Part shown: positions 14,284 through 15,778 of the stretch, in pieces
Numbering within the stretch: position 1 is the stretch's first letter
How the letters are laid out: each line of letters opens with the position of its first letter
IMG/VR virus record: IMGVR_UViG_3300045970_001152
Strand: one strand, 5' to 3'
Origin: a virus
Length of the DNA: 41,125 nt
Position numbers and translations under genes: made by a program
The notes under the pieces: generated by a model
Seen by the model: the letters and a program-made list of their open reading frames with translations, nothing else
Database searches by the model: none
What the model was told of the DNA's origin: nothing

Positions 14284-14478
14284 TCAGTTCTCTTTCTTGT
14301 GGGTGGTCTTGCGCTTCTTACTGCTCAACAGCCTCTGCTGCTTGGTTCTGTGCCCAGTGCCTTTCTTGACCTGGACAGACTTCTCTCCGCCGATCTTCTT
14401 GCGCCCACACTTACGACAGCGGGTGCGAAGCTCGGGGTTGCCTTGGGAGCACTTGCCGCACTCCCAACCGGGGACCAT
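14284..14478 (-). CDS. Small RanBP2-type zinc-finger protein (WECGKCSQGNPELRTRCRKCG) with a Lys-rich tail, immediately upstream of the MVP gene.
   Basis: Exact W-x-C-x2-C-x3-N-x6-C-x2-C spacing. GGAGAGGAGAGGGA upstream. TGATG overlap with the methyltransferase gene. Stops 2 nt before the MVP ATG. Confidence 0.6.
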   Translation of the reverse strand: MVPGWECGKCSQGNPELRTRCRKCGRKKIGGEKSVQVKKGTGHRTKQQRLLSSKKRKTTHKKEN

Positions 14479-15074
14479 CACTTCCCTCTCCTCTCCACCT
14501 TGCTGGTGGACTCGAGGACGCGCAGCTTCCCGGTGCAGCCGTTGAACCAGTGGAACCAGGCGTACTCGATGCTGTCCGTCTTCCCCCCGCCCACGAAGGA
14601 TGGCCGGTTGGGCAGGACGTAGATGTCGGGCCTCGTGTTGCGCATGAACTCCGCCCTCTTCTCGCTGGCCACGAAGTTGAGGCGCAGCAGCATGAGGGTG
14701 TGGTTCGCCATCGGGAGGCACCTGTCGATGAACTCCTGGGCCAGGATGAAGGGCGGGTTGGTGATGGCCACCGAGAATCCGCGGAACTTGTCCGGAGGGC
14801 AGTCGAAGAAGTTGCCTGTGATGATCTTGCCGATTCTCGGCCTGATGAGGTTCAGCATCGGGATGGGCCCGGTGCGGAGCTCGCACGCCGTCCAGTAGAC
14901 CGGAATCTTGAGGTTCGCATTGACGGCCTTGATGATGGCGCCGTTGCCGGCACAGGGTTCGAGCCACTGCCCGCCGGGCAGATGGACGGCCTTGAGAAGC
15001 CGAGCCACGCACCAGGCCGGCGTGGGGTACGTGTCATGCCGCTGCCTAGAACGGCCTCTCTTCGTTGAACTCAT
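14478..15074 (-). CDS. Small DNA methyltransferase, probably N6-adenine (gamma-class order: motif X YPTP, motif I EPCAGNGAI, motif IV NPPF).
   Basis: 198 aa. DTYPTPAW near the N-terminus, LEPCAGNGAIIKA, ITNPPF. Orphan enzyme with no cognate restriction gene in view. Confidence 0.7.
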   Translation of the reverse strand: MSSTKRGRSRQRHDTYPTPAWCVARLLKAVHLPGGQWLEPCAGNGAIIKAVNANLKIPVYWTACELRTGPIPMLNLIRPRIGKIITGNFFDCPPDKFRGFSVAITNPPFILAQEFIDRCLPMANHTLMLLRLNFVASEKRAEFMRNTRPDIYVLPNRPSFVGGGKTDSIEYAWFHWFNGCTGKLRVLESTSKVERRGK

Positions 15075-15559
15075 GGGATGTGCTTCCAGGTCTTTCTGTT
15101 GACAATGTTCCAGATGAGCTTCTCGGACACTTCGAACTTGCGAGCCGTGACCGCCAAGGTCTGCCCCGCCGCTACCTCGGCCCTGATGGAGACGACCTGG
15201 GTTGGGGTGAGCTTGTTGTTGACGTGCTGCGTCCCATGGATGTGGCGGCCCTTCCTCACCTTGTCCTGCATGTTCTCCAGGTGACTTCCTGCGAAGAGAT
15301 GACTACCTCGCAGGCAGAGGGGCTGGTCGCAGTGGTGCAGGACCTGCTCGCCCTCCTCGAGAGGACCGTTCTGGAGAACGAAGGCAACGTGGCTGGCCCG
15401 GTAGGTGACGCCGTTGACCTTCACCTTCGGGTAACCATCAGCGAAGAGTCCAGCAGTCCATCGCCAGCAGGTGTTGGGGCCGTTCTCGTCAGGACCCTTC
15501 TTCACCTTCGACCAGAAACGCATAGCTTGGTCGAAGGTGATGTCATCGTACTTGATCAC
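15071..15559 (-). CDS. HNH homing endonuclease with an AP2-type DNA-binding domain.
   Basis: 162 aa. HHCDQPLCLRGSHLFAGSHLENMQDKVRKGRH is the classic HNH_3 motif. The N-terminal CWRWTAG...YPKVKVNGVTYRASHVAFVL is AP2-like. ATGA overlap with the methyltransferase gene. Confidence 0.8.
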   Translation of the reverse strand: MIKYDDITFDQAMRFWSKVKKGPDENGPNTCWRWTAGLFADGYPKVKVNGVTYRASHVAFVLQNGPLEEGEQVLHHCDQPLCLRGSHLFAGSHLENMQDKVRKGRHIHGTQHVNNKLTPTQVVSIRAEVAAGQTLAVTARKFEVSEKLIWNIVNRKTWKHIP

Positions 15560-15568
15560 TGGAGGTCC

Positions 15569-15778
15569 TCACTTGTAGGAGATGCCGTTACGTCGAAGAA
15601 GACTCTCAAGTCGCTTGATCTCCTTGTAGAGGTCGCCAAGCTCTTGCATGGAGATGAGGGCCCACGGCACGAAGGGAGACACCACCTCGACGCCCCTCTC
15701 CGAGAGTTGCACGACTCCTGGGCGTCGGATCCTTCCCAAGCGCCGGTCCCTGCTCTTGCCGCGCTTGGTGGAGCTCAC
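15569..15778 (-). CDS. Small protein whose first 12 residues (VSSTKRGKSRDRR) copy the methyltransferase N-terminus. The remainder is unrelated.
   Basis: 69-aa ORF with a GTG start overlapping the upstream TGA (AAGTGAGC). The shared peptide differs from the methyltransferase copy almost only at synonymous sites. Confidence 0.45.
   Translation of the reverse strand: MSSTKRGKSRDRRLGRIRRPGVVQLSERGVEVVSPFVPWALISMQELGDLYKEIKRLESLLRRNGISYK

Follow-up and report, generated by a model that had tools for sequence, protein, structure and literature searches.

The viral DNA analyzed here (IMG/VR virus record IMGVR_UViG_3300045970_001152; 41,125 nucleotides, below called the window) contains a gene for an HNH endonuclease that lies between two copies of the 5' end of a DNA methyltransferase (MTase) gene. 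This arrangement is probably that of a mobile HNH cassette within the MTase coding sequence, which carries a patch for the gene end that it displaced and has a relic of that end upstream. The HNH gene sits after codon 13–14 of the MTase gene, which is complete because of the second 5' end behind the insertion. ORF69 (the open reading frame, ORF, immediately upstream of the HNH gene), the HNH gene, the MTase gene and their neighbors are all located on the minus strand of the window. The features on which the argument turns are the following:

15778–15569, minus strand: ORF69, with a GTG start that overlaps the TGA stop of the upstream ORF62 as GTGA; it begins VSSTKRGKSRDRR
15740–15778, minus strand: putative relic MTase 5' end, codons 1–13, VSSTKRGKSRDRR, the same as the first 13 codons of ORF69
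15569–15739, minus strand: ORF69 tail, 56 codons plus stop, orphan sequence that separates the relic from the HNH gene
15560–15568, minus strand: spacer of 9 nucleotides (nt) before the HNH start, with GAGGA across the ORF69 stop
15559–15071, minus strand: HNH gene (HNH_3), 162 amino acids (aa), with a TGA stop that overlaps the MTase ATG (ATGA)
15502–15540, minus strand: hairpin with a perfect 13-bp stem and a loop of 13 nt, spanning +20 to +58 in the HNH ORF, found in an inverted repeat search
15018–15074, minus strand: working MTase 5' end, codons 1–19, with an ATG start; putatively cassette-linked tract
14478–15017, minus strand: MTase body, codons 20–198, with motif X YPTP, motif I EPCAGNG and motif IV NPPF
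15074–14478, minus strand: whole MTase gene, 198 aa, beginning MSSTKRGRSRQRH

A reading made earlier from the letters alone (the sequence-only reading) had pointed out the peptide shared by the starts of ORF69 and the MTase around the HNH gene, and the coordinates, the ORFs and the peptide were borne out. It had also suggested a search for further SSTKRG-type starts: in a six-frame translation of the window this string occurs exactly twice, at the starts of ORF69 and of the MTase. The match is beyond chance. Compared with a hidden Markov model (HMM) of the MTase-family N-terminus (first 32 columns), the start of ORF69 scored 14.3 bits (E 0.06 for 50,112 segments, or ~1e-6 per sequence), it outscored every shuffle in a Smith-Waterman local alignment test, and the pattern recurs in an unrelated contig, L002, described below. 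Aligned over 39 nt, the copies disagree at 16 sites, of which 5 are first, 3 second and 8 third codon positions; the start codon is GTG in ORF69 and ATG in the MTase, and codons 2–13 comprise 4 identical, 5 synonymous and 3 non-synonymous codons (K/R, D/Q, and R/H). The claim that the copies differ only at synonymous sites, and almost exclusively at third positions, is therefore not correct. Relic and working copy share 10/13 residues (59% identity at the nucleotide and 77% at the amino acid level), and synonymous sites between them are saturated (proportion of synonymous differences, pS, 0.74).

Nearly all sampled members of the MTase family, for which 378 homologs were found, begin with the conserved N-terminus MSST[KN]RG..R...D.YPTP.W, and residues M1, S2, T4, R6, G7, D14, Y16, and T18 are invariant in 29/29 aligned members. 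The shared peptide is therefore the N-terminus of the MTase family and not a tag; the alternative offered by the sequence-only reading, that two proteins make use of a basic N-terminal tag, is rejected. We infer that the peptide has been kept because both copies derive from working MTase genes, and not through a function of ORF69. Saturation of synonymous sites between the copies is what is expected of two diverged MTase alleles that were each under purifying selection and were brought together by the cassette.

Comparison with relatives that lack the endonuclease, as the sequence-only reading had proposed, showed the MTase gene to be uninterrupted in both. In L003 (an IMG/VR contig of 153 kb) the MTase is 89% identical at the amino acid level and is encoded by a single intact gene; the stop of a 287-aa gene overlaps the GTG of the MTase, and ORF62, ORF69 and the HNH gene are absent. 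The 5' end of this type of MTase gene reads GTGAGTTCGACGAAGAGAGGGAAGAGCAGAAGCCGTCACGACAACTACCCC, and the overlap of the relic GTG with the ORF62 stop in the window reproduces the start context of the intact L003 gene. In L001 (an ENA contig of 196 kb) the MTase is 85% identical and encoded by one intact gene that follows a 77-aa helix-turn-helix (HTH) gene, again without ORF69 and without an HNH gene at the MTase. The DNA homology of the window to these relatives ends near 16004 and 16070 (the break relative to L003 lies at 16004) and resumes exactly at 15073, the start of the MTase.

An independent replicate of the arrangement was found in L002, a Logan contig of 13 kb from another data set, where relic, HNH gene and full MTase gene occur again in a different gene neighborhood. 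Here the upstream copy is an 18-codon mini-ORF, MSSTKRGKARQRADKKAS. It overlaps a 72-aa ORF at the latter's stop, and its own TGA overlaps the GTG start of the HNH gene. Only 4 codons come after the relic, and this tail differs from that in the window. The ORF69 tail is absent, and the gap between relic and HNH gene is 15 nt if GAC is counted and 12 nt if it is not. The full MTase gene of L002 begins MSSTKRGRARNRHDTYPTP and overlaps the HNH stop. The HNH proteins of the window and L002 are 82% identical, compared with 60% for the MTases and 35–62% for the rest of the genes in common; the homology between the two contigs starts exactly at the HNH start codon, and the HNH genes differ by 0.51 substitutions per synonymous site (dS) with a ratio of non-synonymous to synonymous rates (dN/dS) of 0.24. 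The HNH gene has therefore travelled separately from the genes around it, and purifying selection acts on it.

The working 5' tract of the MTase gene in the window differs in history from the remainder of the gene. In comparison with L003, 38/57 nt are identical in the first 57 nt vs. 91.9% beyond (binomial P 6e-8), with the mismatches clustered in nt 21–57. Codons 2–19 are saturated at synonymous sites (pS 0.75), while the rest of the gene has a dS of 0.20. This contrast marks codons 1–19 as a 5' tract that was replaced, is linked with the HNH gene, has a history of its own and is clearly foreign relative to L003. The MTase body, at ~91% nucleotide identity to L003, was vertically inherited. 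The first 24 nt of the working copies in the window and in L002 match at 22/24 positions, although their MTases are the most distant of those compared.

Two variants of the tract can be told apart at codons 8–10. The R8 type (CGT TCT AGG; CGT GCG CGG in L002) is found in the working copies of the window and L002 and in the HNH-free L001, and the K8 type (AAG AGC AGR; AAG GCC CGG in L002) in both relics and in the HNH-free L003. Both HNH-carrying genomes thus combine a K8-type relic with an R8-type working copy. Over nt 21–39, the relic of the window matches L003 at 13/19 positions and the working copy at 6/19. The G + C content at third codon positions (GC3) is 0.68 in MTase codons 1–19 vs. 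0.92 in the MTase body, 0.80 in the HNH gene and 0.72 in the ORF69 tail, compared with 0.90–0.95 in native genes; in the relic it is 13/13. The trend is the same in L002. For recognizing the native copy GC3 is of partial use only, as intact MTase genes, too, have a lowered GC3 at the 5' end (14/19 in L003).

A C-terminal mirror case was found in L047 (IMG/VR, 48 kb; 4001–5116), where an HNH_3 gene whose product is 35% identical to that of the window directly follows an MTase gene of the same family. The C-terminal peptide of this MTase is duplicated, as GIVKILAETPQAER and RIRVLNETPRNER. AT-rich codons encode the end of the MTase, GIVKILAETPQAER, with a GC3 of 0.2 in the final 15-codon block, similar to the 0.46 of the HNH gene, whereas the contig has 60% G + C overall. 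The codons for the end of the HNH ORF, SRIRVLNETPRNER, are GC-rich (GC3 0.87), and the HNH stop overlaps the ATG of the next gene. The composition boundaries around the duplicated C-terminus are sharp, and against an HMM of the MTase C-terminus the HNH tail scored 13.7 bits and the MTase's own tail 17.5 bits. This layout has the classical orientation of the mORF gene hybrids of mitochondria (discussed below), in which a foreign C-terminus arrives with the endonuclease and the native C-terminus is left downstream.

The HNH gene is sporadic among close relatives, being absent from L001 and L003 at the MTase. Among 82 MTase loci, L002 alone has this HNH gene upstream and L047 has one downstream; L001 carries an HNH_3 gene at a second site, encoding a protein 35% identical to that of the window, ~7 kb from the MTase and not adjacent to it. 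A scan for N-terminal duplications at HNH-family loci (67 scorable) was positive for the window and L002 only. In L114 (511–1565) a distant HNH protein (31% identical) shows the same TWKHI-stop/ATG-MSST junction onto the MTase (KHIL*/MSSTNR). A relic candidate before the HNH core of this locus, VSSRKTQKPPTTPRGWLVRAF, has the look of a decayed MTase start; it had no HMM match and a shuffle P of 0.035, and is not claimed. Closer relatives of the HNH gene were sought in JGI metagenome contigs, IMG/VR and GTDB genomes, where none exceeded 49% identity over any segment or 42% over near-full length, and the junction pattern TGGAARCAYATHCYATGAGYTCNACNAA had no matches in viral or genome collections.

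The HNH protein matches the Pfam family HNH_3 (PF13392; E 4.3e-9, 36.3 bits with a cut-off of 24.8) and PHROG groups 59/1872/826, annotated as HNH endonuclease. Residues H75, C77, D78, C82, H87, N96, and D99 of its catalytic motif are invariant in 9 homologs. The C-terminus (residues 119–153) forms three helices with weak Mor/HTH matches (E 0.02 in Pfam; PHROG 664/836), and in searches of the PDB with an AlphaFold model (pLDDT score 83) the HTH fold matches of these helices were likewise weak (E 0.1–1). The best fold matches of the model were the homing endonucleases I-HmuI and I-PpoI, all weak, and there was no PDB match at the sequence level. The protein is a ββα-Me nuclease of the HNH_3 family, followed by a putative HTH-like domain at the C-terminus. 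The sequence-only reading had called the gene AP2-HNH; an AP2 domain was not detected, Pfam giving HNH_3 only, besides the weak HTH-like matches. The HNH gene has its own start and stop, only 12–15 nt separate relic and HNH gene in L002, and an Rfam scan gave no group I intron (two noise matches only at E <= 1); the gene is thus free-standing and neither intron- nor intein-borne.

The GAGGA across the ORF69 stop is likely the Shine-Dalgarno sequence of the HNH GTG. The hairpin within the HNH ORF is kept in L002 in a 12–13-bp version (about 8160–8195). The fold of the HNH start region has a minimum free energy of −36.9 kcal/mol (z −2.6; −2.25 in L002), and in the predicted fold of the window the Shine-Dalgarno sequence GAGGACC pairs with GGGUCCU downstream of the HNH start. 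The conserved hairpin is possibly a translational brake on the endonuclease. A promoter and terminator scan was uninformative.

The MTase belongs to PHROG 799 (DNA methyltransferase, E 2.2e-41). It contains the S-adenosylmethionine (SAM)-binding motif I EPCAGNG and the catalytic motif IV TNPPF, of the form (D/N)PP(Y/F), and gave weak profile matches to M.TaqI, HemK and BseCI, with no Pfam match at E <= 0.1. At the level of the family match it is a predicted N6-adenine or amino DNA methyltransferase.

For ORF69, a search of 5.8e9 clustered proteins returned only the same sequence, gene-called from V23, and an exhaustive HMMER search of 1.84e9 cluster representatives gave no credible homolog. 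The metagenome gene caller had thus begun ORF69 without the peptide. The only other match, P0131, is a tandem-repeat ORF and was judged spurious. Neither ORF69 nor ORF62 had a Pfam or PHROG match, annotated phage records contained no DNA or protein match to the region or to ORF69, and when blastn and tblastx were run on 197 loci and the window to trace where ORF62 and the 168-nt spacer come from, the relic itself was the only match. A 16-nt direct repeat (13/16) at the ends of ORF69 (15766–15781 and 15560–15575) was treated as chance, because repeats of this quality are common in the region. ORF69 is an orphan and the relic a non-conserved leader. ORF69 and the HNH ORF share a reading frame, with the TGA and three codons (GGA CCT CCA, 15560–15571) between them, and readthrough of the ORF69 stop would yield a relic-spacer-HNH fusion.

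From these patterns we infer cleavage, a cut site, immunity of R8 alleles, homing and translational coupling. The cassette would consist of the HNH ORF and its own copy of the first ~19 codons of the MTase, joined by the ATGA overlap, so that full-length MTase would still be made. The displaced 5' end, with its GTG start and 13 codons, would stay upstream as a relic, fused to 56 orphan codons in the window (ORF69) and forming an 18-codon mini-ORF in L002. The HNH endonuclease would cut HNH-free MTase alleles near codons 8–19, and the break would be repaired from an HNH-carrying genome, with the MTase body as the right homology arm and the left junction made through the short 5' relic or by one-sided illegitimate joining. 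The R8-type tract (CGT TCT AGG) could be an allele that resists cleavage and is copied along with the HNH gene by co-conversion, the relic keeping the K8 type (AAG AGC AGR) like the HNH-free L003. Ribosomes starting at the relic may be passed on to the HNH gene and then to the MTase gene via the closely spaced or overlapping stops and starts. If the recipient's own first codons are kept at each homing, the relic would be renewed and would have little time to decay.

A wider picture, which we put forward tentatively as one that may or may not hold, is an intron-free life of a homing endonuclease in coding sequence. The endonuclease would travel as a patch cassette, and the relic would serve both as a left homology arm refreshed with each homing and as a translational launch pad. 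A single HNH_3 lineage group would occupy both ends of one MTase family (in the window, L002 and L114 at the 5' end, in L047 at the 3' end), with K8 and R8 as the sensitive and the resistant allele of the target in an ongoing cycle of invasion and loss.

The genes around the cassette are arranged as follows:

16832–15960, minus strand: 290-aa SAM-methyltransferase-like gene, the upstream context
15775–15963, minus strand: ORF62, an orphan small ORF whose GTG start overlaps the stop of the 290-aa gene
14478–14284, minus strand: zinc-ribbon ORF, 64 aa, with an ATGA overlap with the MTase stop
14281–11642, minus strand: major-vault-protein-like gene, 879 aa

No two of the three genomes are alike where the 290-aa gene meets the MTase (window 15775–16069, L001 9645–10001, L003 3946–4004): in the window there is ORF62, and the 290-aa gene has a changed 3' end; L001 has the 77-aa HTH gene, and L003 has nothing. 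The site looks like a hot spot of small-gene gain and loss. Downstream of the MTase, the 64-aa ORF has a CxxC...CxxC zinc-ribbon-like pattern and a very basic tail and is kept in L001 and L003, with no family match in Pfam or PHROG. The 879-aa protein contains major vault protein domains (MVP_shoulder, E 6.8e-28; Vault_3, E 1.5e-9), and its gene is kept in both large phage-like relatives (L001, 196 kb, 10791–13460; L003, 153 kb, 4794–7439); a vault-protein homolog is unusual in a jumbo-phage-like genome. L001 also encodes Acb2/Tad1-hairpin and Tad3 domain (anti-defense) proteins and Cpn10 (529–750, 1727–2152, 3402–3767, and 2687–3244).

Several observations weigh against the explanation by a mobile cassette with a patch. 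Over nt 1–20, the working copy is closer to L003 than the relic is (18/20 vs. 15/20); the HNH-free L001 has an R8-type tract, the type of the working copies; and the 5' ~57 nt are also an outlier in the comparison of L001 with L003 (40/57, P 0.003). The native copy is thus not cleanly assignable, and the 5' tract is a mosaic in all lineages, which fits repeated invasion and loss and also ordinary mosaic recombination at a variable junction. In addition, the two relics match each other at 27/39 positions and each relic matches its own partner at 23/39; such 39-nt samples are very small. The relics may have a single origin and have been carried along with the cassette, rather than left by independent events. 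There are only two solid cases of the 5' type, with L114 as one junction-only case. Finally, the variable segment of the window also holds ORF62 and the changed 3' end of the 290-aa gene. ORF62 may have arrived together with the HNH cassette, and the whole block could have been received by ordinary recombination.

Spelled out, this last alternative has the 290-aa 3' end, ORF62, relic, spacer, HNH gene and MTase codons 1–19 arrive as one block by homologous recombination from an unsampled relative, with the HNH gene as a passive passenger, possibly inactive or otherwise employed, and with a duplication that took place earlier and elsewhere. The segment replaced relative to L003, from 16003 to ~15017, is indeed larger than the HNH gene, and both the variability of the 290-aa gene/MTase junction in all three relatives and the mosaic 5' tract are in keeping with such an exchange. 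It leaves the origin of the duplication unexplained, however, and L002 contains the relic-HNH-MTase unit in another neighborhood, behind other upstream genes and with homology from the HNH start codon onward. As the HNH gene is moreover under purifying selection and far more similar than its flanks, we regard block recombination as unlikely.

The sequence-only reading had favored an old duplication around a homing-endonuclease insertion, with selection keeping the peptide. Its link to the insertion stands, given the uninterrupted genes of the HNH-free L003 and L001. An old tandem duplication in place, with ORF69 as a selected small protein that shares a basic N-terminal tag (e.g., for DNA binding or localization), is by contrast very improbable: the 10/13 peptide identity despite 16/39 nucleotide differences, the coupled start and the open frame would suit it, but ORF69 is an orphan without credible homologs and is absent from L001 and L003, the relic in the L002 mini-ORF of 18 codons is followed by just 4 codons, the metagenome gene caller starts at V23 and excludes the peptide, and the motif begins no other ORF of the window.

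Remoter still is a restriction-modification pair of HNH and MTase with ORF69 as controller protein. A nuclease gene does adjoin a DNA MTase gene here with overlapping stop and start, but the MTase occurs without HNH in L001, L003 and nearly all of 80 viral loci, and of the 82 MTase loci only L002 has the HNH gene upstream and L047 downstream. The protein is HNH_3 and I-HmuI-like, and the divergence of the two partners is discordant (HNH 82% vs. MTase 60%). Chance resemblance, an assembly artifact, or a self-splicing intron or intein with an HNH gene can be dismissed as next to impossible, since the repeat, short as it is (13 codons), matches the family HMM at p ~1e-6, the layout recurs in L002, which comes from another data set, the Rfam scan gave no intron and the 12–15 nt upstream and ~40 nt downstream of the HNH ORF in L002 leave no room for a ribozyme, and the working copy has its own ATG.

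Under the explanation by a patch-carrying HNH cassette, natural replicates show how a selfish nuclease gene can enter a conserved coding region by bringing a spare gene end, with no need of an intron or intein and with the host protein left in one piece. For annotation, it explains small orphan ORFs beside HNH genes whose first codons mimic the neighboring gene, and it flags short terminal tracts with a history unlike the rest of their gene. The target of the endonuclease is predicted to lie in MTase codons ~8–19.

The homing-endonuclease reading is right in outline and does not amount to a new principle. Our literature search found C-terminal mitochondrial hybrids, T4 intronless homing and endonuclease-split phage genes, and no phage endonuclease that carries a replacement 5' end with a start codon. 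Structurally, the best match of the HNH protein is I-HmuI of the Bacillus phage SPO1 (PDB 1u3e; probability 0.95), with which it shares the HNH ββα-Me core and, putatively, a C-terminal HTH. This match is weak (E 0.04, TM-score about 0.3), and I-HmuI is intron-encoded, unlike the window HNH gene.

The free-standing homing endonucleases of T4-like phages, such as SegE/F/G and MobE, spread by "intronless homing" (PMC2988022). The window resembles them in the lack of an intron or intein and in sporadic presence, and, as we read it, in flank co-conversion and in a carrier protected by a sequence variant. Those genes are usually intergenic, their products cut at some distance from them, and the review (PMC2988022) makes no mention of a duplicated gene end. 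A route of entry with homology on one side only and with microhomology junctions is known from the one-sided illegitimate repair of double-strand breaks during T4 td intron homing (Parker, Belisle and Belfort, 1999, summarized in PMC2988022). The td case is an experimental intron system; here, such repair may have created the relic.

Unlike the genes of intronless homing, the HNH gene of the window is inserted within coding sequence, with the gene repaired by the carried patch. Insertion of a homing endonuclease gene into coding sequence is reportedly also seen for mobA, with the gene 60 bypass element in the T4 topoisomerase, as Bonocora et al. are said to have described in 2011. In the nrdA gene of Aeh1, insertion of mobE splits the phage gene (PMC2988022). 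With both of these the window shares a homing endonuclease gene in an essential or conserved coding sequence, together with a feature that preserves the function of the host gene. There, this feature is the use of two polypeptides or ribosomal bypass; here, it would be a complete second 5' end, which makes the 13-codon relic dispensable.

The closest parallel is provided by the mORF gene hybrids of fungal mitochondria, as in atp6 of Allomyces macrogynus (Paquin, Laforest and Lang, 1994, cited in PMC3630166) and in atp6, atp9, cox2 and nad3 of Glomus (Beaudet et al., 2013, PMC3630166), whose duplicated termini have ~64% nucleotide and 91–100% amino acid identity (PMC3630166). In both systems an endonuclease ORF lies between two copies of a host-gene terminus (in the window and L002, and in a C-terminal version in L047); in the mitochondria, and on the present reading in the window too, it travels with a foreign host-gene end and leaves the native end beside it as a relic. 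The duplicates combine low nucleotide with high amino acid identity (59 and 77% here), and the phylogenetic history of the terminal tracts differs from that of the gene body. The mitochondrial hybrids involve the C-terminus and LAGLIDADG or GIY-YIG endonucleases; in the window it is the N-terminus with its start codon, in a large phage and with an HNH_3 endonuclease, with stop and start codons that lie close together or overlap and with the relic upstream. The window is therefore a mirror-image variant of the mORF gene hybrid, not a strict member, and would extend this arrangement to phages and to the 5' end of a gene, where start codon and translational coupling need to be rebuilt.

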